DNA of 64,000 bases from Gammaproteobacteria bacterium (GTDB taxonomy: Bacteria; Pseudomonadota; Gammaproteobacteria; UBA4575), in the NCBI GenBank assembly GCA_965222615.1, contig CBDCUI010000009.1, forward strand, positions 736,001 through 800,000, given 5' to 3'. The translations under genes were made by a program, and so were the position numbers. Shown piece after piece: positions 12,219 to 55,619 of the stretch (the stretch's first letter is position 1; every line of letters starts with the position of its first letter). Below the pieces are notes generated by a model. It was given only the letters and a program-made list of their open reading frames with translations. It searched no databases and was not told where the DNA came from.

Positions 12219-12221
12219 AAT

Positions 12222-15961: not shown

Positions 15962-15971
15962 TTGCGTGTTG

Positions 15972-17105: not shown

Positions 17106-17126
17106 TCAATTTCCTCCGTGTACACG

Positions 17127-17164: not shown

Positions 17165-17292
17165 GTCTGTGTTATAGGTTGACCAAAAGGATTGTACTCA
17201 ACTCAAGCGAATTACGAAACCAAGAATTAGAGATATTTTGCACATCTTGTGATCAATACAGCGGGAATTCCAATCGTCATGGCAATGTTATC

Positions 17293-38168: not shown

Positions 38169-38177
38169 ACAATCCCT

Positions 38178-39005
38178 ATGAACTTAAAAGGTACACTTGA
38201 TATTGCTGGACGCTCAAACACAGGACTAGTGCGTGCAAACAATGAAGACAAAATAGGCGAAGATCAAGAAATTGGTTTAGTCGTACTAGCAGATGGTATG
38301 GGTGGCTATAAGGGTGGAGAAGTTGCAAGCCGTATTGCAGTTAATACTATTTTAGAAGAATTACGTACAGAAATTCCTAATCTCATACCAGGAGAAATAG
38401 ACGAACAAACTGGGTATACAAAGGAAAGTTTAGCTGCGCGTAAATCTATTGTTAAAGCCAACGAATCAATTTTTACAGTAAGTACAAGTGAACCACAATA
38501 TCGTGGCATGGGCACAACACTTGTAATGGGAATCTTTTACGATAACCAAATCACTATTGCACATGTCGGTGACTCAAGGATGTATCGTTATCGAGATGGA
38601 AATTTTCAACAAGTAACAGTAGATCATACTCTGTTACAGGAACTCGTTGATCGTGGTTTTTATACGCAAGAAGAAGCAAACTCATCGCTCAATAAAAATT
38701 TAGTCACGCGTGCACTAGGCATTGAAGGTAGTATCGCAGTAGATATCAAAGAAGATTTGGCAATGCCTGATGACATTTACTTGCTATGCTCCGATGGTCT
38801 GACAGATATGGTCGATGATCAGGAAATTCATGCAACGGTAACGGCATTTAAGGATAATCTTGATGAATTGGCGGATAAGTTGATTGCAATTGCTAATGAG
38901 AATGGGGGCCGAGACAACGTTTCGGTATTATTAGCAAAACCAAATAAAGAGTTTCCTGGTAAGAAAACTTGGAAGAAAAAGTTTAGTAAATTTCTCCACA
39001 AGTAG
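38178..39005 (+). CDS. PP2C-family (Stp1-like) protein phosphatase
   Basis: RANNED, ADGMGG, HVGDSR, LCSDGL, GGRDN. Confidence 0.95.
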   Translation: MNLKGTLDIAGRSNTGLVRANNEDKIGEDQEIGLVVLADGMGGYKGGEVASRIAVNTILEELRTEIPNLIPGEIDEQTGYTKESLAARKSIVKANESIFTVSTSEPQYRGMGTTLVMGIFYDNQITIAHVGDSRMYRYRDGNFQQVTVDHTLLQELVDRGFYTQEEANSSLNKNLVTRALGIEGSIAVDIKEDLAMPDDIYLLCSDGLTDMVDDQEIHATVTAFKDNLDELADKLIAIANENGGRDNVSVLLAKPNKEFPGKKTWKKKFSKFLHK

Positions 39006-39014
39006 AATTGTGAC

Positions 39015-39971
39015 ATGCCTAAATTAATTTTAAGCGTCGATGATAAGATCATTGACGAATTCAATATAGATAAAGACACTGTCACCATCGGTCGACGAAC
39101 AGACAATGATATCTGTTTGGATAATCTTGCGATCAGTGGTTATCATTCTCAAATTACTACTGTGCTCAATGATTCTTTTTTGGAAGATTTGAACAGCACA
39201 AATGGGACATTTGTAAACTCTAAAATTGTCAAAAAGCATGCATTGAAAGATGGCGATATTATCGATATCGGAAACCATCGTATTAAATATATCAATCATC
39301 TTGCCACTAGTTCAGCCAATAGCGAATTTGAAAAAACAGTGGTAATAAGCCCCAACTACAATGAGAAAAAAATTGATGCTTCGATTGAAAACTTAGAAAG
39401 TGAAATTGAAGCGCTTATCGATACAAAAGAAGATGCCGACAATGACTCTCAAGATAGCAATAATAATGAACAAGCCGTTGCACTGATCGATGCAATCTAT
39501 GATGGACATGAAGATACCTCTCTAAAAATACCATCTATAGAAGATTCACCAGCTTCAGAAGAACCAGAGCTCAAAAAAGAATCATCTGCTGAAAATTTAG
39601 CTGATGAAAAATTAAGTTCTGAAGAAATGGGCCCTGTAGAAGCTACTATAGAAAAATCATCACCTAAAAAAGAAACTCCTTCCAAATCAGATGATAATGA
39701 AAACAAACTAGGCCGTATTCAAATTCTCAGTGGCAGTAATTGTGGTAAAGAATTAACTCTCGATAAGACTTTAACAACCTTAGGCAAGCCTGAGGTCGCG
39801 GTAGTTGGCATCACTAAACGCCGCAGTGGTTATTTCATCGTACATATCGATGGCAGTGAAGGTAATGCCTCTAGATTGAATGGTGAAATTATTAAAGGCA
39901 AAGCCCAGCCTCTAGAAGATCATGACATCATCGATGTCGCTGGGATTAAGTTAGAGTTTTTTGTCGAATAA
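39015..39971 (+). CDS. Double FHA-domain protein with acidic linker
   Basis: IGR, S..H, STNGTFVN; second FHA-like domain at C-terminus. Confidence 0.92.
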   Translation: MPKLILSVDDKIIDEFNIDKDTVTIGRRTDNDICLDNLAISGYHSQITTVLNDSFLEDLNSTNGTFVNSKIVKKHALKDGDIIDIGNHRIKYINHLATSSANSEFEKTVVISPNYNEKKIDASIENLESEIEALIDTKEDADNDSQDSNNNEQAVALIDAIYDGHEDTSLKIPSIEDSPASEEPELKKESSAENLADEKLSSEEMGPVEATIEKSSPKKETPSKSDDNENKLGRIQILSGSNCGKELTLDKTLTTLGKPEVAVVGITKRRSGYFIVHIDGSEGNASRLNGEIIKGKAQPLEDHDIIDVAGIKLEFFVE

Positions 39972-40006
39972 TCTCGAAGTATTTTTCATTAAGCTGTTTG
40001 AAACAA

Positions 40007-40510
40007 CTATAACTTATAAGTGACTGCTTTTGAGTCAAAGCATACTAGCTTGTGTGTTTTTACACTGTACTTAAATTTATGCTTTAAAAGCCTTAGCAAA
40101 TTAGATAATAACTCATTAACTGAATTAACCATAACATCAACAGTTAAAGCCCCTTCAAGCAGGACCCCTTCAAGCCCACCTTTTTGATTTACCACTGGCA
40201 CAGAGCTAACCCCAGCATCTCTCATATGTGCAATTGTCTCTATTATGTAGTCGTCTTCTACGGCAGTTAATATTTCATTACTAATAACATACTTCACAGC
40301 AACGTCATTCAGATTTATCTCATTGATCAACATATCAGTCACGACATCCCTATCTGCTAACGCGCCTATAGGTAAGTGTTGATTATCCTTATATTCAACT
40401 ACGACAATATCCCCAACGTGATTGTTACGCATAGTTTGAGCTGCTTTTTGTATTGAGTCGTCAGGTTGGCATATGACTACATTTTGATTTCTTAATTTGT
40501 CGATATACAT
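40007..40510 (-). CDS. CBS-domain protein, possibly degenerate
   Basis: AAQTMRNNHVGDIVVV, DRD, MRDAGV..VPVV. Confidence 0.75.
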   Translation of the reverse strand: MYIDKLRNQNVVICQPDDSIQKAAQTMRNNHVGDIVVVEYKDNQHLPIGALADRDVVTDMLINEINLNDVAVKYVISNEILTAVEDDYIIETIAHMRDAGVSSVPVVNQKGGLEGVLLEGALTVDVMVNSVNELLSNLLRLLKHKFKYSVKTHKLVCFDSKAVTYKL

Positions 40511-40582
40511 AGTTTCTTACCCTTTAACTTTTAAGAGAACGTCCTTGTTCATTAGTTGTCCGTAGTATTTTTTACCAAAATA

Positions 40583-41275
40583 TTATTTAGCTGGCACAAA
40601 GATTGCTGCACGAATCGGCGGTAAAGGATTACCCATGGGATCAAGATCATCATGATCAGTAGTTAGATCTGTTATCCATGATGTATCACCAAGCATTGTC
40701 TCCATAGGAAGATCATGTATAGCCAACGCAATATGAACATCTGCCTTGAACCCATGACCTCGTTTTAATCCAACATCACTATTCTTGCCCAGTCCTTTAT
40801 TTATGTGTATTCCCTCTGGTATTTTTCCTGCAACTGTCTTGGCATGAATATTGACCACGCCATTGCCCATTCCATCGTCGGTACTAATTGCACTGCCTGC
40901 ATAATAAACTGCTGTTTGTGTGTCTGGATTTGAAATATCACTAAGAGCACACTTTGTTAATACTTCTCCATCTGGACCTTTCACTACAGTTTCATCATCG
41001 CACTTGTTTGGTTTGTTAAATATGATAAACCAAGCGGTAACGGGTACACCTGGATTTGGCACTAATGACATAATATTCGCTTTTAATTCATTTTTTTTAC
41101 GAAATAATGTCGCGGCACCTGTATATAGTGAACTCTCACTAACACCACCTTGACTACCATCAAATGTAAGCACATCTGCTGCTTGATACGCTAATTTCAT
41201 ATCGCCAGAGGAAGCATGAGCTGGAGAGCAAATAAATATTGCGGTAATAAATGAAATTAAAAATATTTTTTTCAT
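40583..41275 (-). CDS. Secreted hypothetical protein (candidate ECF target 1)
   Basis: Signal peptide ending AHA; TAWFIIFNKP..C...C; DVHIAL..H. Confidence 0.8.
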   Translation of the reverse strand: MKKIFLISFITAIFICSPAHASSGDMKLAYQAADVLTFDGSQGGVSESSLYTGAATLFRKKNELKANIMSLVPNPGVPVTAWFIIFNKPNKCDDETVVKGPDGEVLTKCALSDISNPDTQTAVYYAGSAISTDDGMGNGVVNIHAKTVAGKIPEGIHINKGLGKNSDVGLKRGHGFKADVHIALAIHDLPMETMLGDTSWITDLTTDHDDLDPMGNPLPPIRAAIFVPAK

Positions 41276-41420
41276 AAGTTATTCCCCTTCTTTTCTAATA
41301 AAAATTTTATAAAGTTATGAAAATTAGTGAATGCTGTTTCCAGCATTCAGGTTTACTTGAGCAAAAATTTATTTGCTTAAGTTACTAGTAAAGATGGGAG
41401 ATAGATAAAATTGTCAGAAA
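41276..41420 (-). promoter_or_regulatory. Conserved promoter/leader copy 1 with TCTGACA-N14-CCATCT
   Basis: Collinear with 42147-42290 and 50927-51070; motif at 41392-41418. Confidence 0.85.
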
Positions 41421-41633
41421 AAATTTTTGAGGCTAGTGAAAAGACAGATGTTTGGTACGGTTGCTTGTGCCAATAATGGTATTCAGTGGTACACAAGTTA
41501 TCTCAGTGGGTTTCAGAGTGGCCCGTAATTGACACATTGATTCAGATTAGCCTTTATGCGGCCTACCGTACTGAACAAACCGATACTTCGCTACTCCTGA
41601 AGTTCTATACCCTGCATTCAGAAATGCCCAACC

Positions 41634-42146
41634 TTAGTCATCGTCGCTTCTGTCATTATCTTCGGAGTTTAACAAGTCCAGGCGTCGGCCCTCATAGGTA
41701 ATGAATCCGAATGGAAACTCTACGTCTGGCGTACCATTCAAATCTGGAAAATCTTCGCTATTGGCAGCGTTCACGAAATACTGTTTTATACCTATGTCAC
41801 CCTTCAGAATATCGTTGTCGAGCTTCAGCTGTAACGTCGCCAACGTTATGTGCTGTTGCACTCCGGTACTGTCGTAATGGATATTGATTAGTTTAACCAG
41901 GATATTCTTGCGACTAATTTTTTCCCAGTTTCCATATGCCACTGAATCAAATCCATCACTGAAATCTGAAGTGTCCACCGACGTCGCGGTGCCATCCTGA
42001 TGTAGTGTTAAGATACGATGAAACAGGAGGTCATCTAAAATCGAAACATTACCAGGGAATACGCCAACCAGATTCGAATCCGCATCAGCACTTAATGTGA
42101 TACACAGAAATAGAATTGTCGATAAAAAACGGACTATTATTTTCAT
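41634..42146 (-). CDS. Secreted beta-strand-rich hypothetical protein (candidate ECF target 2)
   Basis: Signal peptide ending ADA; LTLHQDGT...YGNWEK pattern. Confidence 0.8.
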   Translation of the reverse strand: MKIIVRFLSTILFLCITLSADADSNLVGVFPGNVSILDDLLFHRILTLHQDGTATSVDTSDFSDGFDSVAYGNWEKISRKNILVKLINIHYDSTGVQQHITLATLQLKLDNDILKGDIGIKQYFVNAANSEDFPDLNGTPDVEFPFGFITYEGRRLDLLNSEDNDRSDDD

Positions 42147-42290
42147 CTGAACTCCCCTTCTTTTCTAATAAAAATTTTATAAAGTTATGAAAATTGATAA
42201 ATACTGTTACCAATTTTTACGTTTGCTTGAGAAAATGTTTAATTACTCAAGTTACTGGTAAAGATGGGGGATAGATGAATTTGTCAGAAA
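42147..42290 (-). promoter_or_regulatory. Conserved promoter/leader copy 2 with TCTGACA-N14-CCATCT
   Basis: Motif at 42262-42288. Confidence 0.85.
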
Positions 42291-42364
42291 AATTTTTATT
42301 ATTTTATGATTTAAAATAACCAAGAAGGCAGAAATAATATTTTGGGCTAGCAAAATACAGATGC

Positions 42365-43030
42365 TTATTGCATAACCACTAATTTATAGCGGGCTTTCGA
42401 TGTTCTTCCTTTTAAATCTGCTATCCTTACAGTTAACAAGTGTTGACCGCTCGGAAGGCTCATTTTTTTAATATTGAGTTGATTAGATTTAATCTTTGAT
42501 GATCTCAAAATACGTTCAGTTATGTCTGCATTCAATAAGCCGTATGTCAATTGAAAACTCTTTGCATCTATTTCTGAGTTTGGTGATGCTTCAAACGAGA
42601 GCTTAAACGCAAATGGTGATGTAATATTTTTTATATCTTTAGGTTTTTCGAGTGTAATTATTGGAAATTCTGGATCAATTGACATTTCTACTGCTTCCAA
42701 GGAAAGAAGTTGCTCCTTTGTCAAAGAAGCTATGTACTGATTTTCCGCATTAACATCTTTTTGGCTAATCAGCGGAAGCTGTGTAGGAACTAATTGTGTA
42801 TACAGCAAAATAGATACTGATAAAACTATAGTGGCTGCAATAGCAAAATAGGTAGGAGTGCTTAAATGTTTATTACGATCACTGGGTTCATCTGCATTTA
42901 TCTGGTTATTTACTTTTTGCATCAACTTGGATTTGAATGACTCAATGTCTGTGTCACTCACTAACGTTTCAAAATGCTTTTGTTCACGTTCTAAAGTCGT
43001 TTTCAGTTGTTCTTCAGCAGAATCACTCAT
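42365..43030 (-). CDS. Putative single-pass anti-sigma factor with periplasmic beta domain
   Basis: Directly downstream of ECF sigma; ~60-aa helical N-terminus, TM YFAIAATIVLSVSILLY, C-terminal beta-rich domain. Confidence 0.7.
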   Translation of the reverse strand: MSDSAEEQLKTTLEREQKHFETLVSDTDIESFKSKLMQKVNNQINADEPSDRNKHLSTPTYFAIAATIVLSVSILLYTQLVPTQLPLISQKDVNAENQYIASLTKEQLLSLEAVEMSIDPEFPIITLEKPKDIKNITSPFAFKLSFEASPNSEIDAKSFQLTYGLLNADITERILRSSKIKSNQLNIKKMSLPSGQHLLTVRIADLKGRTSKARYKLVVMQ

Positions 43031-43047
43031 ATTAATCTTCTACAAAT

Positions 43048-43629
43048 TTAACTAATCGTACTAATGTTTAATAAAACATCTTCACCACAAAATTTTTTTA
43101 TTAATTCTTGTAATTTCTTTCTTGCTTGTGAAACATATTCACGTGTAGCACCATAAGTCTTATCCATAAAAACTGCCACATCTTTTAGGCTCCATCCATT
43201 CAGCACTGATAATTCAATGATCAAAGCTTCATCATAAGAGCGCTTTCGAAGTGCGCTGATGGCTTCACCCAAACAATTTTCCAATAATAAATCATTAACA
43301 GTATACGTGCTCAAAATTTCTTCTAGTTGGTCGTTTTCCAACGAGTATTCTTTAATTGTGGATTGTTCTCGTAAATATTCGTTGAATGAGTTAAAAAACA
43401 TTCTCCATAAATAAGGGCGTATTTGATTTGCTTTTGCGATGAGCTTCGGTTTATTAGCTATTTTTAAAAATACGTTTTGAATAATATCCTCCGCATCGGC
43501 ATTGGATACACCCCTTTTATATAGATGACCCAGATACTTCTGCGCTAATTCATCATATAAATACGAAATGGCTTGAATCACTTGTTTCTTTTCCCCCAAT
43601 AAGTATTTTTTTATCAAAATATCATCCAT
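43048..43629 (-). CDS. ECF RNA polymerase sigma factor
   Basis: Region 2 DAEDIIQNVFLK...YLWR...N; region 4 GWSLKDVA...GATREYVSQARKKL; 193 aa. Confidence 0.9.
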   Translation of the reverse strand: MDDILIKKYLLGEKKQVIQAISYLYDELAQKYLGHLYKRGVSNADAEDIIQNVFLKIANKPKLIAKANQIRPYLWRMFFNSFNEYLREQSTIKEYSLENDQLEEILSTYTVNDLLLENCLGEAISALRKRSYDEALIIELSVLNGWSLKDVAVFMDKTYGATREYVSQARKKLQELIKKFCGEDVLLNISTIS

Positions 43630-43686
43630 TGACCATACTCATATTAGTGTTATCAAACATCAAATTATCTACGTATATTTAATTAT

Positions 43687-43714
43687 AGTTGCCTTTATGA
43701 AGTAAAATGTCAGA
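43687..43714 (-). promoter_or_regulatory. Possible autoregulatory promoter of the ECF sigma gene
   Basis: Minus strand TCTGACA-N15-GCAACT; weaker match to the motif. Confidence 0.45.
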
Positions 43715-43834
43715 ATATATTGCTTGTCAACAAGAAATATCTAATCTTTTTTCAAATCACGAAGAATTGGTTGGAGGCTATTATGCAATTAGTTACAAAT
43801 TGGTTACAACTCAGAATCCTGATATTAGTTAGAA

Positions 43835-43861
43835 TCTGACAGTTTCATCAAGTAACCATCT
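43835..43861 (+). promoter_or_regulatory. Promoter motif upstream of ompA-caspase operon
   Basis: TCTGACA-GTTTCATCAAGTAA(14)-CCATCT. Confidence 0.8.
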
Positions 43862-43897
43862 ATGACCATCGATTCCATGTCAGTTCACTTAAAAATA

Positions 43898-44461
43898 ATG
43901 GAATTTATAAAGTTATTTGTAACATTTGCATCCTGTTTAATAGGGACAATTATATTTGCTCAGGATGTTGATGTAATCATGGATAGTGGGACCATTGTAG
44001 AAGATTTACTAAAAGAGGATGGGATGACTCGCGGCATAAACGTTCAAGCAGTCAGTACCCCTTCATCTGATAAAACAAAGTCAGTAAGCAAAAGCGACGA
44101 AAAAAGCCCAAGTGTAGTTGCATTAAATATCCAATTTCATTTTGATTCAGCAAAATTAACAGAATCGGCTATTCTTCAATTAAATGAATTAGGTAAAGCT
44201 ATCACATCAAAACAACTTAACCATTATACATTCGAACTGATGGGTCATACCGACAGCGTAGGAAACCATGAATATAATCAATGGCTTTCTGAACAACGCG
44301 CTCTATCAACTAAGCACTATCTAATCAAAAATTTTAATGTAAAAAAGAATAAGTTGATTACATATGGTTATGGCGAAGAAAAACCACTGTTATTAAATGA
44401 TCCTACAAATAGCATTAATAGAAGGGTTGAAATACGAATACTTACAAGAACAAATAATTAA
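43898..44461 (+). CDS. Periplasmic OmpA C-terminal (peptidoglycan-binding) domain protein
   Basis: Signal peptide from MEFIKL; IQFHFDSA, GHTD..G...YN..LS.QRA, GYGE, NRRVEI. Confidence 0.92.
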   Translation: MEFIKLFVTFASCLIGTIIFAQDVDVIMDSGTIVEDLLKEDGMTRGINVQAVSTPSSDKTKSVSKSDEKSPSVVALNIQFHFDSAKLTESAILQLNELGKAITSKQLNHYTFELMGHTDSVGNHEYNQWLSEQRALSTKHYLIKNFNVKKNKLITYGYGEEKPLLLNDPTNSINRRVEIRILTRTNN

Positions 44462-44490
44462 TATTCAAAAATAATAAATTGGGACCGCTT

Positions 44491-45912
44491 ATGAAATTAT
44501 ACAACAAAATAATTTTTTGTATTGCAGTCTTAAATGGGCTGTTTATTTCATGTGAAAATGTTATTGCTGCACAAAAAGCATTGTTGGTAGGTGTTGGTGA
44601 ATATCAAATACCAAACAAAGAATTACCAGGTATTGATGTTGACATACAGTTGATGAAAGAGATACTGGCAAGATTAGGTTACGCAGAAAGCGAAATAAAA
44701 ATATTACATAACAAAGATGCAACATTGCAAAATATAAAAAAAGCGATTACAAATTGGCTTGTCGACGGCGTACAAAAAAATGACCGAATTGTTATATATT
44801 TTGGTACTCATGGGAGCAGAATATACGACGTTGACGGAGATGAAGAAGATCAAGTAGATGAAGTCTTACTCGCCCATGATGCGAAGTTTTTCACAACAAA
44901 ACATGGGCGCACACTTAAAAATGTAGTTATTGATGATGATTTAGCAAATTGGCTTGCTAATATTCCAAGTGAAAATATTTTTGTTTTAGTTGATGCATGT
45001 AATAGTGGCTCGGTTACAAGGAGTGTTAAATTATCAAATTTATCCTTAGGTGTTGAGACCGCAGCAGCTAAATTCTTTTACTATGACGGCATTCCAGATG
45101 AGAGTGGCTCGACATTTACTAGGTCACTAGTCAATCGAAGTCTTGATCAAAACGTTAATTATATTGCTATTTCAGCTGCAAAAGATCATGAAATGGCCCT
45201 TTCAACTGAACAAGGAAGTTTTTTCACACTTGGTATTTTTGATGGAATAAACAAAGCATCTAACGGATCAGGCACAATTACTGTCGAGCAATTACATCGC
45301 CATGCAGATAGCTATATTGCTAAAACAATCTCAAGAGAAAAAAGATATCACCCACAACTTCATGGTAATGAATATTTAGCAAAGAAAAAATATAAACTAT
45401 TCAAGTTTATGCAAGGGCATGGCTCAAAATGGCAATCATTAGAAAAAATATCCAACCAGGTACAAGATTTAGAGTTATCTTTAAATCAAGAAGAATATGC
45501 CTTACAAGACAGTGTATATATCGCTGTAGATCTTCCTAAAGTAGGTTATCTTAATATAGTTTCAGTAAATGCATACGATCAGGGCACCATTCTTTTCCCA
45601 AATAAATTTAACTTGGATAATTATGTAAATAGTACAAACTTAACTATTCCATCAAAAAACATGCCGTTTAAGCTCGCTGCGGTTAAACCCACCGGACCAA
45701 CATTGATAGTTGGGTTCTTATCAACTGCACCGATAAATCTTTATGAACTGAGTTATGAAGGTCGTGATATCGGTGGTGCTTTAAATAAAGCTTTTGCAAC
45801 ACTATCTTACAGTGGTATTCGTGCTATAACTTTAGAATCAGAAAAAACGAAGCAAAACTATGAAGATGTTTTATACAGCAAATCTGTATACACAAATATT
45901 AAAATGAAATAA
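44491..45912 (+). CDS. Secreted metacaspase-like C14 peptidase with C-terminal DUF4384-like domain
   Basis: Signal peptide; THGS and DACNSG dyad; DVDGDEEDQVDE acidic motif; GYL...LFPN...IP...F...P.G C-terminal domain. Confidence 0.9.
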   Translation: MKLYNKIIFCIAVLNGLFISCENVIAAQKALLVGVGEYQIPNKELPGIDVDIQLMKEILARLGYAESEIKILHNKDATLQNIKKAITNWLVDGVQKNDRIVIYFGTHGSRIYDVDGDEEDQVDEVLLAHDAKFFTTKHGRTLKNVVIDDDLANWLANIPSENIFVLVDACNSGSVTRSVKLSNLSLGVETAAAKFFYYDGIPDESGSTFTRSLVNRSLDQNVNYIAISAAKDHEMALSTEQGSFFTLGIFDGINKASNGSGTITVEQLHRHADSYIAKTISREKRYHPQLHGNEYLAKKKYKLFKFMQGHGSKWQSLEKISNQVQDLELSLNQEEYALQDSVYIAVDLPKVGYLNIVSVNAYDQGTILFPNKFNLDNYVNSTNLTIPSKNMPFKLAAVKPTGPTLIVGFLSTAPINLYELSYEGRDIGGALNKAFATLSYSGIRAITLESEKTKQNYEDVLYSKSVYTNIKMK

Positions 45913-47271
45913 ATGTATACAAAAATCACCATTATTTTAGTTTTTTTATTATCAATAAATATTTCATATGCAACAAATCGCTATGCGCTCGTTATAGGCA
46001 ATTCTGATTATCCGTTTGGTCAGCTAAGGAATCCTAGTAATGATGCACAAGATGTTGCCTCAGAATTTGAGAAATACGGATTCGATGTAGATTTAAAAAC
46101 CAATGCGACCGCATTCCAACTAAAACAATCCTTGGATAGCTTACAAAGTAAGCTGCAGTCCAGTAGAGGAATTGGCATCATTTATTTCGCTGGGCATGGC
46201 GTGCAGTTTCAAGCCGAAAACTTTTTACTCCCTGTCGATGTTTCAACTACTTCTGCAACCGAACTTAAACGTACAGCCTTATCACTAAATACGGTCGTGA
46301 ACACGTTAGACCAGGCGCAGAACAAACTCAATTTAGTCATTCTCGATGCCTGTCGTAATAATCCATTCAAGAGTAGTTCACTTACGAGTGTTTCTCGAGG
46401 TCTACAAGCCGAGGCTAAAAAAGAACAAGATGGCTTAGCCCCGGTAGCGATCAGTGTGTCGTCCGGAACGGTGTTTTGGTATGCCACGCGTCCTGGGGAT
46501 GTGGCTTTAGACGGTAGTGGTCGCAATAGTCCTTTTACTTCGAGTCTGCTGCAAGTCCTTAATAATCATGCTGTACCGGCACGCTCGATTATCAGTCAAG
46601 TTGCAATACGAATGCGTAATTTAAAAATTAATCAACAGCCCTGGCAAGAAGGTATTTGGTTAGAAGACTTTCATTTTGATGAGTCAAGTAACCATAAAAA
46701 TGTCCCCGTGCAAATCGCTAAATATGATTCATTTCAGGAAGATATATATCGTGACTATATTAAGAATTGCAAAAAGTCTGGTAAAAAATGTAAACATTTA
46801 GCTAGCGTCGAAAAAATAATTGAGGAGTCGGATAAAAAAACAACTATAGCAAACACAAAACTCGAAAATGCTGCACCTAGCAAAATTGATGGATACGATG
46901 ATTGGCTTGGGCAGTGGCAATGCACGTGGGCGCATAATGATAATTCGAATAAGGGAACAAGCATTGTTAAATTTTACAAATTTGAAAAAAATATTCTATA
47001 TGGTACTTCGAGTCTTTCGACATGCCCTCAAGCTTCTAAATTTAAATTGGATACTACTGAATCACCTTTGAAATATACATTACTCCCCTGCTGTGCATCT
47101 TGGACTTGGAAAACCACGATGTGTAATGCAATGCTTAGAATAACAATCGAAAAAATTCCTAAATTAGGAGAACAACAAGCTATGAAGTCCTCATACACTA
47201 CAGATTTTTTTAACCTTCCTTCAAGCAGTCTTAGTATAGGTGGCGAACAAACTTGTATAAAAATTTACTAG
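45913..47271 (+). CDS. Secreted caspase-family (para/orthocaspase-like) C14 peptidase with Cys-rich C-terminal domain
   Basis: Signal peptide; RYALVIGN..Y, LRNP.NDA, YFAGHG, ILDACRNNPF, NSPFT. Confidence 0.92.
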   Translation: MYTKITIILVFLLSINISYATNRYALVIGNSDYPFGQLRNPSNDAQDVASEFEKYGFDVDLKTNATAFQLKQSLDSLQSKLQSSRGIGIIYFAGHGVQFQAENFLLPVDVSTTSATELKRTALSLNTVVNTLDQAQNKLNLVILDACRNNPFKSSSLTSVSRGLQAEAKKEQDGLAPVAISVSSGTVFWYATRPGDVALDGSGRNSPFTSSLLQVLNNHAVPARSIISQVAIRMRNLKINQQPWQEGIWLEDFHFDESSNHKNVPVQIAKYDSFQEDIYRDYIKNCKKSGKKCKHLASVEKIIEESDKKTTIANTKLENAAPSKIDGYDDWLGQWQCTWAHNDNSNKGTSIVKFYKFEKNILYGTSSLSTCPQASKFKLDTTESPLKYTLLPCCASWTWKTTMCNAMLRITIEKIPKLGEQQAMKSSYTTDFFNLPSSSLSIGGEQTCIKIY

Positions 47272-47356
47272 GAGCTATATTGAATAAACGCTTTTGGCCA
47301 ATAGCGTTTATTCATGTAAATACATTTTTTATATAAAACCAAGATTTTATAAGAAA

Positions 47357-47384
47357 AAAATAGGCGCCCGAAGGCGCCTATTTT
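47357..47384. terminator. Bidirectional intrinsic terminator
   Basis: AAAATAGGCGCC-CGAA-GGCGCCTATTTT between convergent genes. Confidence 0.9.
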
Positions 47385-47408
47385 GGGTAAAACTAGAGTC
47401 TTATTCAG

Positions 47409-48815
47409 TTAGAATAACTGAACCAAACCCACTGCGACCATTTCAAGATCACCTCCAACACCATTACCCGCTGAATTGATACCGAAATCATAATTGGCGT
47501 TTCTGTCATTAGAGACTTCAGAGTAGATTACACGTAATTCGGTGCCGGCTGGGAAGGTGTAGAACAAACCAATGTTATACGCATCACCACTTGAACTGCT
47601 GTCGGATAGACCATTATTACAGGTACTACTACCTGCACCGGAATCACAATCCAAATCATCAGCATCCATATAGGAGAAGCGGATATCAAACGGTCCTGGA
47701 AAGTTGTGTTTACCCGATATCATCCAAGCATCGCGTTCCACTTCGTTTCTATTGCCAGCTACACCGTTACCACCGAGTATACCAGCACCTGTAGCACAAT
47801 CTTTATGAACATACTTAATTTCTTCATACATGCCGGAGAACCAAGTTGAGTGGCCATTGCCCCAATCGTGAATGTAACGACCCGCGATACGCCATGAATC
47901 ATCATCAGAATCTCTACAGCCAAAATCGGCTGCAGCCCAATCATCATGTTTTTCATAAGTGAGGGCACCCCAAATGGTGGATCTACCTTTACCGACGTCG
48001 TTTTCGTAGGCAACCCCCATAGACCAAATACGTGGGTCTATTTTTTTCGTAGTACCAGAAGCCGTGGTTACCTGCACATCGCCATTACCAGAAAAGTAGT
48101 TCAAGCCAGGGTCGTTATGAGCATTGGAGGTCGCAATACGGGCTGTAAAGCCATTCCAATTAGGTGAGAACCACTGTACCACACCGTTTTGACGTCGGTT
48201 AAAACCATTGTTTTGAGGACCAAAGTTCGCACCAAAGGGACCAAAATTGGTCGGTCCACCAAAACCACCACCGTTATCAAAACCGAAGCCACCGTTAAAG
48301 AAACGGGTACCGAAGCCGACTGAGCCCATGATGGAGCTGGTAGAATCCGCACCTGCATCACCGAAAGGGTCAATCCATGGAAATACCATTTCATTATGAG
48401 GTAGCAACCAATGAGCAAACATCACTTCGCCCCAAACACCAGCCAAGCCTAGCTTACTGTTACGATTACAGAAATCATTAAAGCCAAAAATGCCTGAACC
48501 AGTAAGTCGGTTAATAAAAAGGAATTGTTCACAACGAAAGGTTGCTATGATCGGGGTTTCGCCAACAGTAAAACCGGTATCGATTTGTGCATCAAAACCT
48601 AAATGCGCAACATTAGCACTGATACGAGACATATCTCTGTCATCCCCTGGGCCATAATAGTTTTCAGACTCTACCCATTCATATGAGTAGTTCTGATATG
48701 CATAAATAGTCCAGTTTGAGTTAGCATTACCGCCACTTATCCCTCCAGCAAATGGTGCTAGTGGTAACGCTACAAGGACGAATGCAAAAGCAGCTCTTAT
48801 TAGATTAGTTTTCAT
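47409..48815 (-). CDS. Outer membrane porin (general diffusion porin-like)
   Basis: Signal peptide, NRNSKLGLAG.WGEV, VQWFSPNWNGF, amphipathic last strand ending in F. Confidence 0.85.
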   Translation of the reverse strand: MKTNLIRAAFAFVLVALPLAPFAGGISGGNANSNWTIYAYQNYSYEWVESENYYGPGDDRDMSRISANVAHLGFDAQIDTGFTVGETPIIATFRCEQFLFINRLTGSGIFGFNDFCNRNSKLGLAGVWGEVMFAHWLLPHNEMVFPWIDPFGDAGADSTSSIMGSVGFGTRFFNGGFGFDNGGGFGGPTNFGPFGANFGPQNNGFNRRQNGVVQWFSPNWNGFTARIATSNAHNDPGLNYFSGNGDVQVTTASGTTKKIDPRIWSMGVAYENDVGKGRSTIWGALTYEKHDDWAAADFGCRDSDDDSWRIAGRYIHDWGNGHSTWFSGMYEEIKYVHKDCATGAGILGGNGVAGNRNEVERDAWMISGKHNFPGPFDIRFSYMDADDLDCDSGAGSSTCNNGLSDSSSSGDAYNIGLFYTFPAGTELRVIYSEVSNDRNANYDFGINSAGNGVGGDLEMVAVGLVQLF

Positions 48816-49084
48816 GTAATTTCCCTCCCGTGCAATTTACAGGAGCTTTTCATACGCTCCTTTAAATTGTTATTGATTTTTATTTGAAAGCTTTTAATTA
48901 AAGCTTTATGCGCAAATAAGATTTAACTTATTAACATTAGATTTTACATTAAAGTGGATAATTGATGATCAATGAATATTTATTTTTTATTGACTAGTTT
49001 ATTGACTTAATGCAATTCTTAATTTTTTTTAAAGCTCATAGTTTTTTTATTGAGAAATATAAGATATTGCTAAGCAATAAATTT

Positions 49085-49393
49085 TACGAAGGAAAGATAT
49101 TATGTCTGCTTATGAGATTTAAATAAAACTTTCGCAGCACTATCTTATAGTAGTATTCGAGCTATAACTTTGGAATCAGAAAGATAAAATTAAATGTAAC
49201 ACAAAAACCTTTAAGTTATACAGTGCATCATGCATCGACGTTGTATTATAGACAATGCACAATAAAAGTATTTACTATCGACCAGATTACTACTTCTCAA
49301 GAACAACTCATTTTCAATGCCACTTATACTAATAGCCAACACAACGGTCTCCTACTTGAGCGTGGTAAACAAACTTGTATAAAAATTTTATAA
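49085..49393 (+). pseudogene. Fused remnant of the 3' ends of both caspase genes
   Basis: NKTFAALSYSSIRAITLESER matches the end of the 44491 gene; IKLNVTQKPLSYT...GKQTCIKIL* matches the end of the 45913 gene. Confidence 0.85.
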
Positions 49394-49516
49394 AACATTG
49401 TTGAACATCTGCTATGAGTGGTTACCAGACATTTCAAGTTTGTAAACCCTTGATTCCAACAAATTCGTCCCTAAATTTGCCCGCCTTCAGCCAATAGCGG
49501 CCACTAACTCTGTTAT

Positions 49517-49545
49517 AAAAAAGCCCCACTATAAAGGTGAGGCTT
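49517..49545 (-). terminator. Intrinsic terminator of the beta-helix protein gene
   Basis: AAGCCTCAC-loop-GTGGGGCTTTTTT. Confidence 0.75.
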
Positions 49546-49573
49546 CGTAATTTAGTCGGATGACTATCTTGTT

Positions 49574-50926
49574 TTAATCGTCGTTGCCAACAAGCCTGAC
49601 TTCATTGTTGATACCTAGATCAACTACCAGTAGACAGCCCGGTGTGCTGCATGATGCGCCTGGATACACATTTACAACTTCTATTGGACCTGGAGCCACA
49701 GCAGTTACAAGGTTGTTGAAACTTGGTCCGGTAATTGGCGCACCATTGCTACCATTTTTTTCGGGCCCATTCGTGTTATCAAAAAACACATCAACATCAT
49801 TGTCTTGTAATTTTGTTTTGAGGAATCTGTTATTGCCACTAAAACTTTGTTCAACGTTGACCCCAAAGTCGCAGTTGCGTACCTCATTATTTTTCCACAC
49901 GGTATCAACTTCTTCGTTATTAGCACAAAGTCCATTGAAGCAAGCATGTATATAATTATCCTTAATTCGTGCACGAGTATTTTTCTTAGCAGAATCAGCC
50001 CCTATAGCAAAAACCGAAGCTGCTACGCTCGTGGCAATAGCGCAACCTTGATTACGAAATAAACTACCAGGTATTACCTCTTTTATACCATTTAACATGG
50101 TATTGCCTTTTACCTTGGTGTCTTCAGTGCCAAGCATTTGAACAGCATAATTGCCATATCCATTAAACAAGTTATTTTTGATCACAGTATTCTTAACTTG
50201 ATCCTCTTCTTCATTTTCGGTAACTACTTCAAAAGAAAAGGTATTAAAATTGAAGCAAATAGAACCTCCACCTAATAGCCTCACACCCGCAGAATTTATC
50301 CCTGTTATATTTGTCATTTTATTGTTCTTAACTTGAAGACGGTTAACAGAGCCTGCATTCACCCCAAAGGTGACATTATCGAAATAATTATCCTTAATGA
50401 CGATATTATTAAACGAGCCCGGTATATAATTATTTTCATCACAGTTTAAACTCGGACTATTATAATTAGTAATTGACACAGCTCGGTTAAACAGCTCGAA
50501 CTTAAGATCATGTATTTTAATGTTTTCAATGGTGCCGTTCAGAGGCGTAGGGCCGATCAAAAGCCCTCTATTTCTAAATTCTGTCGTAAAAGGATCATCA
50601 GAAAGAGGGCTACCAGGAAGACAACCAGGAGTATTTTGACCACATTCGGTACCACGCAATACAGTCCAATCATTATTAGCACCTTTTATGGTTAGGTTTG
50701 AGCGTTGAATAGAAACAAACGTATCATCAAATTGGCAAATTCCTTTGAGCTCAACGACACGATTGTTTGTATTGTCAACTGCAGCTTGAATTTTCGCTCT
50801 ATCAGATGCGATGTCGTTTTCACACTGGACCACTTGCATATTGCCGTCATTGTCGTCAGCGAAAGAAAAACTTGGTACCACCAAAAGTAATGCCAAGCCT
50901 ATTTGAATAAAGTGTATGGTTTTCAT
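49574..50926 (-). CDS. Secreted right-handed beta-helix (pectin lyase-like fold) protein (candidate ECF target 3)
   Basis: Signal peptide; IQAAVD start motif; repeated IKDN/VKNN/IKNN/VKGN units. Confidence 0.8.
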   Translation of the reverse strand: MKTIHFIQIGLALLLVVPSFSFADDNDGNMQVVQCENDIASDRAKIQAAVDNTNNRVVELKGICQFDDTFVSIQRSNLTIKGANNDWTVLRGTECGQNTPGCLPGSPLSDDPFTTEFRNRGLLIGPTPLNGTIENIKIHDLKFELFNRAVSITNYNSPSLNCDENNYIPGSFNNIVIKDNYFDNVTFGVNAGSVNRLQVKNNKMTNITGINSAGVRLLGGGSICFNFNTFSFEVVTENEEEDQVKNTVIKNNLFNGYGNYAVQMLGTEDTKVKGNTMLNGIKEVIPGSLFRNQGCAIATSVAASVFAIGADSAKKNTRARIKDNYIHACFNGLCANNEEVDTVWKNNEVRNCDFGVNVEQSFSGNNRFLKTKLQDNDVDVFFDNTNGPEKNGSNGAPITGPSFNNLVTAVAPGPIEVVNVYPGASCSTPGCLLVVDLGINNEVRLVGNDD

Positions 50927-51070
50927 CTGAACCTCCCTTCTTTTCTAATGGAAATTTTATAAAGTTATGAAAGTTAACTAATATTGTTACCAGCATTTAG
51001 GCTTACTAGTGCAAACGCTTAATCGCTTAAGCTATTAGTAAAGACGGGGGATAAATTAAATTGTCAGAAA
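50927..51070 (-). promoter_or_regulatory. Conserved promoter/leader copy 3 with TCTGACA-N14-CCGTCT
   Basis: Motif at 51042-51068. Confidence 0.85.
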
Positions 51071-51476
51071 ATTTTCATTTAAAAAATTAAAAAGACAGCA
51101 TCTATAGCAGCGAATGTCTACTTTGGGCTGCCGATTCAATCGGTCAATGCAACACCTTGCTAAACTTTTAGTAATAAAGAGGTTGACTCAAACGGATGAC
51201 CATTTAGTGTTGAGTTGTTTTTGGATGAACCGGTTACATTAAATACTGCATTATTACTTGCTTCGAGCCATCTTTTATTGATCTACTCTTAAGATGTTGA
51301 TGTAATTGCATTTCTCTTAGCTTTTGCAGCCTTTTTTCACTCTATTTCAAAGTGTTGCATCGACCTATTGAGACCACAGCCGTTAGCGGACATTTTAAAA
51401 TTTTATTTGAGTTTCCCAACTTGTTCCTCATTTAAGCCCACCTAACTTTAATCAGTTCCAACATCCATGTTATATC

Positions 51477-53171
51477 TCATATTCGCATATCCCTAGGCTC
51501 ACGCTCAGGCGGTACCAGCTTGGGTACTGCCGCTAATAATTTCTTTGTATAGTCATGTTGTGGGTTGGTTAGAACCTCAACCACTTCTCCCTCTTCCACA
51601 ATCTTTCCTTGATACATTACCGCAACACGGTCTGCAAAATAGGCAACTACAGACATGTTGTGGGTGATAAACAAATAACTAATTCCATATTTGTCTTGTA
51701 AGTTATTTAACAAATCTAGAATTTGTGCTTGTACGGATACATCTAACGCACTTGTGGGTTCATCGCATATAATAATTTTAGGATCCACTGCTAAGGCCCT
51801 AGCAATACAAATGCGCTGTCGTTGGCCGCCTGAAAATTCATGTGGGTAACGCAGATGTGCATCTTTAGACAAACCTACTTGTTCCAAAAGCTCTAACACG
51901 CGTTGTTTACGTGCTACCGAATCCGGCAATACATTTAGTGCCTTCATTCCTTCTTCAATAATTTCACCTATTAACATGCGCGGATTCATCGAAGAATAAG
52001 GATCTTGAAATACAATTTGCAAATTAGTGCGCTGCTCTAGTAGTTGTTGTTTATCGATGTCATGAATCGGCAATCCTAAATAATGAACCTCGCCCGAAGT
52101 CGGCTGTACCAGTCGTAAAATGCCTTTTCCAACTGTTGTTTTACCGCTACCAGACTCTCCTACCAAGGCTACTGTTTGACCCGGTGGAATTTCCAGTGAC
52201 ACACCATCCACTGCTTTGACATAGCCAACTGTGCGTTTAAAAATTCCCTTTTGAATGGGGAAATGCACTTTTAAATCAGTAACTCGTAAAGTGTCATTTT
52301 CATCAACTTTTAAATCCTCTATCTTTTGATTAGAAATGTCATTTGCTGCCAGTAAAGGCTTACCACGTTTTTCGATAGCCGGTAATGCGGCGAACAAGTC
52401 CCAGCTATATTGATGTTGCGGGGCGGAGAAAAATATTTGATTACTGGATTGTTCAACAATTTTCCCCTGTTTCATCACCGCTATGTGATCTGAGACCTGT
52501 TTAACCACTGCCAAATCATGCGTAATGAAAAGAATTGCCATTTTAAATTTCTGCTGCAATTCATTAATTAAATCCAATACGCGCGCCTGTACCGTAACAT
52601 CCAATGCAGTAGTAGGCTCATCTGCAATTAATAATTTCGGCTCACACGCCAAAGCAATCGCAATCATCACACGTTGTTTCATACCGCCAGATAACTCATG
52701 CGCAAAAGTATCAATAGTGTGTTTAGGATTTTTAATATTAACAGCATCGAGTAAATCCAAAGCACGTTGTCGAGCCTGGGCCTTACTCATATCTTGATGT
52801 CGAATCAATACCTCAGCTATTTGTTTACCAACTTTCACCACTGGGTTTAATGAAGTCATCGGTTCTTGAAAGATCATCGAAATACCACTACCGCGTATAT
52901 CACGCATCTCACGTTCTGGTAGGGTTAAAAGATCTTTACCTTCAAAATGCACTGCACCTGTAGTTACCTGAGCAGATTCAGGCAATAAACGAATCACTGA
53001 AAGTGCAGTAACCGATTTTCCACTCCCAGATTCCCCTACCAAAGCAAAAGTCTCACCTTCATTAATTTGAAAGCTGACTTTATCTACGGCAGTAACTTTG
53101 CGTGTACCGGTTTCAAATACTGTGCTTAAATTTTCCACACGTAGTAATGGAGACTGCTTTGATTCTGACAT
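51477..53171 (-). CDS. Peptide ABC transporter ATP-binding protein (two fused ABC domains)
   Basis: Two GESGSGK Walker A, LSGGMKQR and FSGGQRQR. Confidence 0.95.
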   Translation of the reverse strand: MSESKQSPLLRVENLSTVFETGTRKVTAVDKVSFQINEGETFALVGESGSGKSVTALSVIRLLPESAQVTTGAVHFEGKDLLTLPEREMRDIRGSGISMIFQEPMTSLNPVVKVGKQIAEVLIRHQDMSKAQARQRALDLLDAVNIKNPKHTIDTFAHELSGGMKQRVMIAIALACEPKLLIADEPTTALDVTVQARVLDLINELQQKFKMAILFITHDLAVVKQVSDHIAVMKQGKIVEQSSNQIFFSAPQHQYSWDLFAALPAIEKRGKPLLAANDISNQKIEDLKVDENDTLRVTDLKVHFPIQKGIFKRTVGYVKAVDGVSLEIPPGQTVALVGESGSGKTTVGKGILRLVQPTSGEVHYLGLPIHDIDKQQLLEQRTNLQIVFQDPYSSMNPRMLIGEIIEEGMKALNVLPDSVARKQRVLELLEQVGLSKDAHLRYPHEFSGGQRQRICIARALAVDPKIIICDEPTSALDVSVQAQILDLLNNLQDKYGISYLFITHNMSVVAYFADRVAVMYQGKIVEEGEVVEVLTNPQHDYTKKLLAAVPKLVPPEREPRDMRI

Positions 53172-53188
53172 TTCTTATTACTTAGCGA

Positions 53189-54604: not shown

Positions 54605-54641
54605 GATCTAATTTAATCTCACAACTAATTCAATCTAACAA

Positions 54642-55619
54642 CTAGTTTAATCTCACTCTGGGATCAACAATGGTGTATGAAATATCGGTCAACAATAAAC
54701 CGATGATATATAAAACGGCACCTAGGAATACCATCGAACGCACTATAGAAAAATCTTGTCGGTTGATGGCATCGATAGTGTAGCTTCCGAGTCCAGGTAT
54801 ACCAAAAAAGGACTCCGTGATTAAACTGCCCATAAATAACAACGGCAAAATCACCACTACGCCGGTAAGAATAGGTATTAACGCATTGCGTAAAACATGT
54901 TTAAACAACACCATTTGTTCAGATATGCCTTTGGCACGCGCAGTACGCACATAGTCTTTATTAATTTCTTCAAGAAAAATAGTTCGATACCAACGTGTAC
55001 TTGAACCAATACCGCCAATAATGCCGATTAATACTGGTAGCACTAAAAATTTGACCCCAAACACTCCAGATTCAAACCCAGAAATCGGCACTACCCGCAA
55101 TATTTTCCCCATAACGAACTGCCCACCAATAATATAAAACAGGCTAGAAATAGACATGAGTGCCACGCAAATCACTACCGCCCAATAATCGATATAGGTG
55201 CCACGGAAAAAGGCGATTAATAAAGCAAGCGAAATGGTAACCAGTAACCCCACAATTAATTGTGGTACTGCAATCGCTAAGCTGGGCCACATTCGTTGAC
55301 TAATATCAAAACTGATATCTCGACCACTATCGGAACGACCAAAATCAAATACAAACAAACGTATCGATTTCGTATAAAAAATTGTCTTAGTAAACTTTTC
55401 TACGCCTTTTGCTTCGCTATTACAAAAAAGCGGATAGTGATAACCACGCTCGGTTTTCCAGTCTTCGATCTGCTCTTCCGTTACATGTTTTTGCCCTAAA
55501 AACATACGCGCCATGTCATCAGGCGAGTTCACCACAAAAAAGAGCAAAAATGTAAGTATGTTTACACCGATAATTATAGGAATGGCATATAAAATACGGC
55601 GGATAATGTAGGCAATCAT
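54642..55619 (-). CDS. Peptide ABC transporter permease
   Basis: DYVRTARAKG, HVLRNAL, DPRVR. Confidence 0.94.
   Translation of the reverse strand: MIAYIIRRILYAIPIIIGVNILTFLLFFVVNSPDDMARMFLGQKHVTEEQIEDWKTERGYHYPLFCNSEAKGVEKFTKTIFYTKSIRLFVFDFGRSDSGRDISFDISQRMWPSLAIAVPQLIVGLLVTISLALLIAFFRGTYIDYWAVVICVALMSISSLFYIIGGQFVMGKILRVVPISGFESGVFGVKFLVLPVLIGIIGGIGSSTRWYRTIFLEEINKDYVRTARAKGISEQMVLFKHVLRNALIPILTGVVVILPLLFMGSLITESFFGIPGLGSYTIDAINRQDFSIVRSMVFLGAVLYIIGLLLTDISYTIVDPRVRLN

Follow-up and report, generated by a model that had tools for sequence, protein, structure and literature searches.

In a stretch of 64,000 nt (the window) from a gammaproteobacterium of the UBA4575 lineage (assembly GCA_965222615.1, contig CBDCUI010000009.1, positions 736,001 to 800,000), we find what we consider, with some confidence, to be a portable five-gene envelope-signalling cassette, carried on a genomic island together with the genes that it controls. 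The cassette consists of a gene for a sigma factor of the extracytoplasmic function (ECF) type, a gene for its candidate anti-sigma factor and, divergent from these two, genes for an OmpA-like anchor protein and two exported caspases of peptidase family C14. The source genome (3.1 Mb) is here called G000; two relatives are named repeatedly below, G001 from the same genus and G014 from another genus of the same family. The five genes of the cassette are as follows.

43048–43629, minus strand: ECF-type sigma factor, 193 aa; Sigma70_r2 24.8 bits (cut-off 24) and TIGR02937 sigma70-ECF 49.3 bits (cut-off 42.9).
42365–43030, minus strand: anti-sigma candidate, 221 aa, with one transmembrane (TM) segment and an immunoglobulin (Ig)-like periplasmic domain; its start lies 17 nt past the sigma stop.
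43898–44461, plus strand (open reading frame opens at 43862): OmpA-like protein; Pfam OmpA PF00691 69.2 bits (cut-off 27.2).
44479–45912, plus strand: caspase 1, with a signal-like N-terminus, Peptidase_C14 (75.1 bits) and DUF4384 (45 bits).
45913–47271, plus strand: caspase 2, with a signal-like N-terminus, Peptidase_C14 (121 bits) and a Cys-rich C-terminal region (9 Cys) that matches no family.

An initial annotation of this DNA had described an ECF sigma gene and a gene for a single-pass membrane protein divergent from an OmpA-domain gene and two C14 peptidase genes, with intact catalytic dyads in both peptidases and the caspase 1 stop next to the caspase 2 start. All of this holds: every open reading frame lies where it had been placed, Pfam, NCBIfam and hydropathy agree with the arrangement, both His/Cys dyads are intact, and the stop at 45912 directly adjoins the start at 45913.

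The sigma factor has the domain content of an ECF (group 4) sigma, that is, sigma2 and sigma4 domains alone at about 200 aa; its Sigma70_r4_2 match (25.1 bits) falls slightly below the cut-off of 25.7, and Pfam detects no region 3. All NCBIfam subgroup models score far below their cut-offs (the best, SigZ, at 52 bits versus 169), and the nearest solved relatives are SigH and RpoE (E 8e-7 to 1e-5). The 221-aa membrane protein matches no Pfam or NCBIfam family. It has two cytoplasmic helices (residues 5–21 and 27–46), a TM segment (58–82 by hydropathy, 58–78 in the model), a linker of about 40 residues (83–119) with low predicted local distance difference test (pLDDT) values, and the Ig-like domain (residues ~120–221). 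Because it contains no Cys, the H-x3-C-x2-C motif is absent and the protein is not a zinc anti-sigma (ZAS); nor, with no CHAT or TPR match in Pfam, is it of the DdvA type compared below. The model of the whole protein has a mean pLDDT of 58 and was therefore not used for fold searches.

That the N-terminus of the membrane protein binds the sigma factor, as had been suggested, is what structure prediction returns. With residues 1–58 modelled against the sigma factor (nine sigma and four anti-sigma alignment rows), the interface score ipSAE was 0.86 (0.85–0.86 over three runs) versus 0.01 for the best of three controls; the mark used for this score is reached by 58 of 80 solved complexes and by 2 of 110 mismatched pairs, a calibration that is only roughly applicable to our custom alignments. 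Contact agreement among the runs was at least 94% and partner pLDDT at least 78. The predicted contacts fall on sigma2 (residues 14–59) and sigma4 (112–188), so that the prediction has the hallmark of a class I anti-sigma factor, an N-terminal helical domain binding both. Sigma/anti-sigma complexes have already been solved (e.g. the RpoE entry), and the score therefore shows likeness to this class rather than proof of binding; the model nevertheless supports the two proteins as a sigma/anti-sigma pair.

By inspection and hydropathy, the OmpA-like protein and both caspases have N-terminal hydrophobic segments that we read as export signals. The OmpA-like product would thus be an exported protein with a putative peptidoglycan-binding domain. 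Its start is probably the ATG at 43898, since the promoter-like motif described below ends at 43861, directly before the first ATG of the reading frame; the spacing from motif to start is then 36 nt, versus 35 nt in G014. Its best NCBIfam matches are the PA1041/YiaD anchor-lipoprotein models, below cut-off; what we take to be the PROSITE-type lipobox fits by eye in G000 and not in G014, which leaves its status as a lipoprotein uncertain. Both caspases appear to be genuine members of peptidase family C14 (a p20 fold with a His-Cys dyad), scoring above the PF00656 cut-off of 21.4 bits; the dyads lie at THG 111 and DAC 172–174 in caspase 1 and at GHG 95 and DAC 145–147 in caspase 2. The G014 orthologues retain them, with DSC in caspase 2. 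These two are the only C14 genes found in G000, with no further paralogue. The caspase 1 family has 50 members at E ≤ 1e-40, among them P0190, an OmpA+C14+DUF4384 fusion.

The initial annotation had made co-occurrence of the sigma gene with caspase and OmpA genes in other genomes a test of its reading, and G014 provides such a case. Among 40 relatives G014 alone has a close orthologue of the sigma factor (68–69% identity), the 11 others with matches having ECF sigmas at 21–28% identity; it carries the same five genes in the same arrangement (sigma 68%, TM protein 47%, OmpA 44%, caspase 1 51% and caspase 2 43% identity). The cassette's flanks in G014 differ from those in G000, and an integrase fragment adjoins caspase 2 there. 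In the six genomes of the family checked for both, the sigma and C14 genes are present together (G000, G014) or absent together (G001, G007, G019, G022). Further afield the cassette becomes scarce. At E ≤ 1e-10 there are nine sigma homologues, itself included, in a collection of 5.8 billion proteins; species-representative genomes yielded the G014 record only, and a scan of Joint Genome Institute (JGI) metagenomes with the sigma alignment found no locus. Homologues of the sigma factor, TM protein and caspase 1 come from contigs of equal length in two cases (17,907 for P0008, P0017 and P0189; 16,412 for P0009 and P0174), a hint rather than proof that the contigs are the same.

The cassette lies on an island that the sister species lacks.

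39972–51476, no strand: island, 11,505 bp, with ten genes and every motif site; absent from G001.

Its flanks (window 35187–39407 and 51508–54899) match G001 at 73% identity and are adjacent to each other there: in G001 a gene for an FHA-domain protein and one for an ABC ATPase converge with 15 bp between their stops, and in G000 the 11,505 bp intervene. The ten genes are the five of the core, three motif-preceded genes for exported proteins (the cargo), a CBS-domain gene and a gene for a 468-aa outer-membrane-like protein. GC content drops to 32–33% across the island core (42–46 kb). No repeat of at least 11 nt, whether direct or inverted, was found at the island edges, and the sole tRNA found in the window by a tRNA scan is at position 5746.

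The cassette is tied to the rest of the island by a bipartite, promoter-like motif, CTGACA-N15-C(A/G)TCT, which precedes the OmpA-caspase operon and three unrelated genes for secreted proteins; a degenerate copy precedes the sigma gene.

43836–43861, plus strand: CTGACA-N15-CATCT, before the OmpA-caspase operon; it shares the bipartite motif alone with the other three sites.
41276–41417, minus strand: motif (41392–41417) with a leader of ~115 nt, upstream of the 230-aa gene.
42147–42287, minus strand: motif (42262–42287) with conserved leader, upstream of the 170-aa gene.
50927–51067, minus strand: motif (51042–51067) with conserved leader, upstream of the 450-aa gene.
43687–43713, minus strand: degenerate motif CTGACA-N16-CAACT, 57 nt upstream of the sigma gene; below the thresholds of the position weight matrix (PWM).

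In the form TCTGACA-N15-18-CNTCT, the motif occurs four times in the window versus 0.08 expected, and none of 100 shuffles reached four. Genome-wide, CTGACA-N15-16-CRTCT has seven matches in G000, four of them at the locus, and likewise seven in G014 with four at the locus; G001, which is without the sigma gene, has two. The same motif read backwards, as a control, gave five, zero and three matches in G000, G014 and G001. At the G014 locus (19.9 kb) the four sites compare with 0.20 expected (0 of 200 shuffles reaching four): one precedes the OmpA operon, the sigma gene has a perfect copy at a distance of 72 nt upstream, and the remaining two precede the gene for a giant protein. All eight sites in the two genomes point toward the downstream gene. 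A genome scan with the PWM found no other strong site (the next best scoring 19.9 versus 29.6–39.9 for the known sites), and since the matrix was trained on these same sites the scan is circular and usable only for this absence.

The claim that one motif precedes the operon and the three secreted-protein genes is thus sound as to the sites and their number, but the sites had been counted as if separate. The three cargo genes share a block of ~150 nt, comprising the promoter and the entire 5' leader up to the start codon, at 79–85% identity, with exactly three copies in the G000 genome; the three cargo sites head these copies and are therefore not independent evidence for the motif. The independent support is the OmpA-operon site together with the four sites in the orthologous G014 locus. 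Because the motif stands at four sites in both orthologous loci and is essentially confined to them, it is very probable that the OmpA-caspase operon and the genes for exported proteins are driven by the sigma factor. The degenerate copy upstream of the sigma gene is possibly a weak autoregulatory promoter.

In one possible fold of the shared leader, a long-range stem whose end lies beside the ribosome-binding site encloses two hairpins, and an invariant stretch of ~40 nt lies immediately before that site. Compensatory changes are found in 3 of 29 predicted pairs, which with three sequences is a hint only, and Rfam gave no match to the leaders at E ≤ 1. The leader could be a post-transcriptional control element or merely part of a copied promoter cassette. 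Contigs from three public DNA sequencing runs cover the locus in fragments, and those of one run (X1) break at the three leader repeats.

The genes behind the leaders encode three mutually unrelated proteins that have no paralogues in the genome and that all appear, by inspection and hydropathy, to carry export signals.

40583–41275, minus strand: cargo 1, secreted 230-aa protein; no known family in Pfam or NCBIfam, and only clusters labelled 'hypothetical' in a protein atlas.
41634–42146, minus strand: cargo 2, secreted 170-aa protein; no known family in Pfam or NCBIfam.
49574–50926, minus strand: cargo 3, secreted 450-aa protein; no Pfam match.

Cargo 3 is probably a right-handed beta-helix, a lead that comes from its atlas features (score 0.97 and 175 shared features to Beta_helix/NosD clusters). 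At the G014 locus (L015) the two sites at 11139–11164 and 11447–11472, 308 nt apart, precede instead a gene (11527–17628) for a protein of 2,033 aa with SpvB, FG-GAP, TcdB_midN and RHS matches. The cargo thus differs between the two genomes, and it can be a polymorphic-toxin-like protein.

What connects the anti-sigma factor to the caspases is the family of its periplasmic domain. Searching 1.84 billion proteins with a profile of the membrane protein yields 1,200 cluster representatives at E ≤ 1e-3, of which 510 remain at E ≤ 1e-10; only three of the listed matches cover the cytoplasmic part (P0015, P0017 and P0016), and P0018 matches from profile position 50. Nearly all other members are secreted proteins of ~150–170 aa, with a signal peptide, a short conserved LVT-x-EE stretch and a C-terminal domain of ~100 residues. 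The family has no match in Pfam, NCBIfam or PDB, and its source annotation reads 'hypothetical'. Modelled from a 36-row alignment, the domain is a seven-stranded Ig-like sandwich (pLDDT 92, predicted template modelling score 0.82), with conserved residues mainly at strand ends and turns (YG-L-DIT-R, P-G-H, D-GR). Fold searches returned generic Ig-like, CopC, PKD and FnIII matches (Foldseek best E 1.5e-4, to CopC; VIA best Z 9.3), with no functional lead, and by sequence the domain had no solved relative.

Among the five listed members longer than 250 aa, one (P0153) joins C14 and DUF4384 to the domain, one (P0112) joins OmpA to it and three are without a Pfam match; with P0190, all three pairwise fusions of the cassette's periplasmic parts thus exist somewhere. 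A sample across the phylum has the domain in 9 of 401 genomes including G000, where the anti-sigma factor is the only copy. Outside G000 these amount to 11 places (8 genomes, 5 genera), six with a C14 gene in the fetched stretch and four directly beside a TPR-CHAT protein; such a protease therefore stands beside the domain in 10 of 11 places, and in at least one place in each of the five genera. The six with C14 include a caspase-OmpA-domain operon (G735) and a C1+DUF4384+domain fusion flanked by caspases (G669). In a sample of the class, the domain occurs besides G000 in G297 only, between an S8 peptidase and a caspase-PEGA-FGE protein. Since the family stands beside C14 or CHAT in so many places and is fused both to C14+DUF4384 and to OmpA, the comparison makes a well-supported case that the anti-sigma ectodomain works together with the OmpA-like protein and the caspases encoded next to it. 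A relation to DUF4384 itself was considered and rejected: PF14326 matches neither the anti-sigma factor nor ten family members, and an hhalign comparison of the domain with the C14+DUF4384 family alignment gave a probability of 5.8%, over the signal peptide only, although a very remote relation is possible.

Some neighbours of the domain deserve separate mention. A membrane protein of 254–300 aa with an N-terminal zinc ribbon and about four TM segments is encoded beside the domain gene in 7 of the 11 places, with CHAT or C14 (L049 12491–13321; L050 8764–9537; L051 8838–9611; L053 7600–8364; L054 8626–9798; L055 10411–11175; L058 8853–9755); it may be a third conserved partner of the domain/protease module, and it is absent from the G000 island. 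Near the caspase/S8/Ig-like cluster of G297 (L031) lies a gene (6509–7123) whose secreted product matches the ligand-binding domain of neurotransmitter-gated ion channels (PF02931, E 5.8e-10), and upstream of the cluster (353–4631) are several large unannotated open reading frames.

A hidden Markov model of the sigma factor matched nothing in four other gammaproteobacterial caspase clusters, so the sigma link is not general to those clusters. In a caspase cluster of G314, an OmpA gene is separated from four caspase genes by a stretch (L032, 5179–7099) that encodes a 302-aa protein (P0011) and a 306-aa membrane protein with a single TM segment. As a sigma factor P0011 was rejected, with TIGR02937 at 20.9 bits (cut-off 42.9), an hhalign probability of 0.1% to the sigma alignment and no match to a solved sigma; the pair could be an independent, very divergent sigma/anti-sigma pair, a lead that these tests do not turn into evidence. 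In G406 (L034), a cluster with genes for three exported caspases and two OmpA-domain proteins also contains two serpin genes (10378–11586 and 13330–14700), which looks like a periplasmic protease/inhibitor set.

We propose the following circuit. At rest, the two N-terminal helices of the 221-aa protein would hold the sigma factor, and the OmpA-like protein would hold the caspases at the cell wall. The caspases would act on the Ig-like domain or on the ~40-residue linker below it, most likely making the site-1 cut; a site-2 protease of the RseP type, for which G000 encodes a candidate (a Peptidase_M50 gene, 460 aa), would complete proteolysis and free the sigma factor. The freed sigma factor would read the CTGACA-N15-CATCT promoters, inducing the OmpA-caspase operon in a positive feedback, probably its own operon as well, and the island cargo. 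Of the caspase-sigma signalling loop in the initial annotation, the sigma/anti-sigma pair, the motif-linked operon and cargo and the coupling of caspases to the anti-sigma factor through the domain family now have evidence behind them; cleavage of the anti-sigma factor, the direction of signalling, a relay from caspase to caspase and peptidoglycan binding go beyond these, and are what we infer.

Several observations weigh against the cassette as we read it. The promoter assignment is purely sequence-based, a single 150-nt block in three copies supplies three of the four G000 sites, and the G000 sigma gene has only the degenerate motif (CAACT for CATCT). The predictor may have scored the complex highly because it had learned from solved sigma/anti-sigma pairs, and four anti-sigma sequences show no conserved basic residue or obvious cleavage motif in the linker. 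One of the 11 domain places has no recognisable protease, and 4 of the 11 are from a single genus. The cassette is rare by the counts given above (nine homologues, one other species-representative genome, none in the metagenomes), and the evidence from conservation therefore comes from few, related sequences. Finally, the link between domain and protease fits an inhibitor, chaperone or adaptor role equally well as that of a substrate.

In its strongest form the proposal would make the Ig-like family a dedicated substrate or sensor of exported clan CD proteases across bacteria, here fused to an anti-sigma factor and cut in trans by a wall-tethered two-caspase relay as the site-1 step; we put this forward only tentatively. 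As the main rival it is also conceivable, if rather unlikely, that the domain is an inhibitor, a pro-domain-like chaperone or an adaptor, through which the anti-sigma factor reports on or restrains caspase activity by binding and not by being cut; sigma release would then depend on a different site-1 event or on a change of conformation. The family consists mostly of secreted proteins of 150–170 aa that stand alone and are encoded beside a protease, which is the typical layout of protease and inhibitor, and the conserved residues lie mostly at strand ends and turns; serpins occur in another caspase cluster of this class (L034), and a preprint documents a dedicated inhibitor (PCi) of a prokaryotic caspase (bioRxiv 10.1101/2023.06.23.546230). 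The fold matches are generic, however, and no known inhibitor family stands out among them, while the domain fused to the C-terminus of a protease (P0153, L057) fits a substrate or an adaptor equally and a flexible linker of ~40 residues between TM segment and domain is usual in substrates of regulated proteolysis.

A plainer account, in which the operon and secreted proteins are the regulon of an ordinary ECF sigma factor, the anti-sigma factor senses an unrelated cue and the caspases process or degrade exported proteins such as the cargo, can appeal to three facts: the motif before the caspase operon marks this operon as a target and nothing more, ECF sigma factors commonly transcribe divergent neighbours, and the cargo differs between the two genomes. 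We judge it improbable, because it leaves unexplained the domain's company and fusions, its occurrence in one copy next to all the C14 genes that the genome has, and the presence of a caspase-fold protease at the same anti-sigma position in DdvA of Myxococcus xanthus, an anti-sigma factor with a periplasmic TPR-CHAT protease for which self-cleavage before RseP is proposed (PMC11506125). An anti-phage or abortive-infection module like Craspase, SAVED-CHAT/PCaspase or caspase-gasdermin is more improbable by far. Both caspases, the OmpA-like protein and all three cargo proteins carry export signals; in PADLOC, nine island proteins gave generic matches alone (ZorB, over the OmpA-like part, and a 'caspase' domain model) and no system-specific defence model; and Pfam and NCBIfam find no Cas family and none of cyclic-oligonucleotide-based antiphage signalling (CBASS) in the ten island open reading frames. 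These outweigh, in our view, the island setting of the cassette, the integrase fragment beside it in G014, a weak match of the sigma factor to the NCBIfam model for the type III-E CRISPR-associated sigma (29.2 bits, cut-off 100) and the control of a defence island by DdvA/DdvS (PMC11506125). Of all these accounts we favour the caspase-coupled envelope-signalling cassette.

Two further genes lie on the island.

40007–40510, minus strand: CBS-domain protein, 72 nt downstream of cargo 1, without a motif of its own.
47409–48815, minus strand: 468-aa protein, signal-like at its N-terminus and ending in Phe, by inspection resembling an outer-membrane barrel; without a motif.

The 468-aa protein is an island passenger: it is rich in Gly, Asn and Phe, has a 66% identical paralogue on another contig (C7) and is matched in part by G001 DNA. 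The 137 nt that separate this gene from the convergent caspase 2 gene hold the only Rfam matches over 40–52 kb, weak ones to small RNAs (47300–47428; sraA 38.2 bits, gathering threshold 56; STnc250 30.9 bits, gathering threshold 42), a signal that is probably a bidirectional terminator structure. Directly upstream of the island (36663–39971), genes for a Ser/Thr kinase, a PP2C phosphatase and an FHA-domain protein stand in a tight row; the row is syntenic in G001, and thus belongs to the conserved backbone and not to the sigma/caspase system.

To our knowledge, orthocaspases are widespread and almost none has a known substrate or trigger, those that do being cytoplasmic defence enzymes. The locus offers a compact system for this problem: a candidate physiological caspase partner (the anti-sigma ectodomain), a built-in promoter reporter, two proteases and a wall anchor. 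It is also an independent, trans-acting case for the question of whether a caspase-fold protease can be a site-1 protease, and one in which sigma factor, sensor and cargo move together as one island. The domain family, which comprises some 1,200 clusters and accompanies C14 and CHAT proteases of the periplasm, opens a way into many other uncharacterised caspase clusters. If the two-caspase relay is real, the cassette would be a natural, self-amplifying transcriptional read-out of bacterial caspase activity in control of mobile cargo, which here comprises secreted proteins and in the genus of G014 a giant protein of the RHS/Tc type.

Regulated intramembrane proteolysis of a single-pass anti-sigma factor is familiar from RpoE-RseA-DegS-RseP (its logic is summarised in PMC11506125). 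That system and the cassette are alike in the single-pass anti-sigma factor, periplasmic site-1 protease, M50 site-2 protease and autoregulated ECF sigma factor that we see or propose here. They differ in the proposed site-1 enzyme, which here would be a C14 cysteine peptidase and not an S1 serine protease, and the sensor domain and regulon are unrelated. The CRISPR-linked modules Craspase Csx29-Csx30-RpoE, CalpL-CalpT-CalpS and SAVED-CHAT/PCaspase resemble the cassette in that a caspase-fold or other protease cuts a sigma-binding protein and so changes transcription (bioRxiv 10.1101/2022.08.17.504292, 10.1101/2023.06.23.546230), and SAVED-CHAT, as outlined in its preprint, activates PCaspase in a two-protease cascade (bioRxiv 10.1101/2023.06.23.546230). 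These modules are described as cytoplasmic and triggered by RNA or cyclic oligonucleotides (same preprints), whereas here everything but the sigma factor and the anti-sigma N-terminus appears to be exported and the island has no CRISPR or CBASS genes.

The initial annotation, which had allowed that novelty needed a search, overstated it. Asplund-Samuelsson et al. noted in 2012 a linkage of metacaspase and sigma-70 genes in Myxococcus, Anaeromyxobacter, Haliangium, Sorangium, Ralstonia and Fibrobacter, and OmpA domains in 14 metacaspase operons (PMC3501461). The account of these operons compared here, by description, consists of co-occurrence lists and names no anti-sigma factor, promoter, sensor domain or mechanism (PMC3501461). 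A periplasmic caspase-fold protease on an anti-sigma factor, moreover, is published as DdvA/DdvS (PMC11506125). The likeness is close: an ECF sigma factor is held by a single-pass anti-sigma factor through a small N-terminal helical domain on sigma2 and sigma4, a periplasmic clan CD protease is the proposed site-1 enzyme, which would sever a flexible linker above the TM segment before RseP acts, the linker equivalent to our residues 83–119 being the proposed cleavage site, and the distribution is narrow (PMC11506125). In DdvA, however, the TPR-CHAT part (~900 aa) lies within the anti-sigma factor and would cut in trans within a dimer, whereas here the anti-sigma factor has only an Ig-like domain of ~100 aa, and two C14 proteins, each with its own gene, are the proteases. 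With its CHCC motif DdvA belongs to the zinc anti-sigmas, and the one here has no Cys; the DdvS regulon is CBASS and CRISPR-Cas, and that of the cassette would be exported proteins and the protease operon; and the OmpA-type partner sets the cassette apart (PMC11506125). The relay proposed here, if real, would achieve in trans, with its parts split between proteins, what DdvA is proposed, so far without proof, to achieve by autoproteolysis (PMC11506125).

In the literature searched on ECF sigma factors, anti-sigma factors and periplasmic orthocaspases, with the list of DdvA-like anti-sigma factors (table S7) and the supplements of the ECF reclassification outside coverage, this arrangement is not described; the main text of the reclassification paper mentions none of caspase, C14, OmpA, DUF4384 or peptidase. 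What is new at the locus, compared with these systems, is the trans-acting two-caspase design, the OmpA anchor, a previously unannotated partner domain as sensor and a mobile, sigma-dependent cargo.

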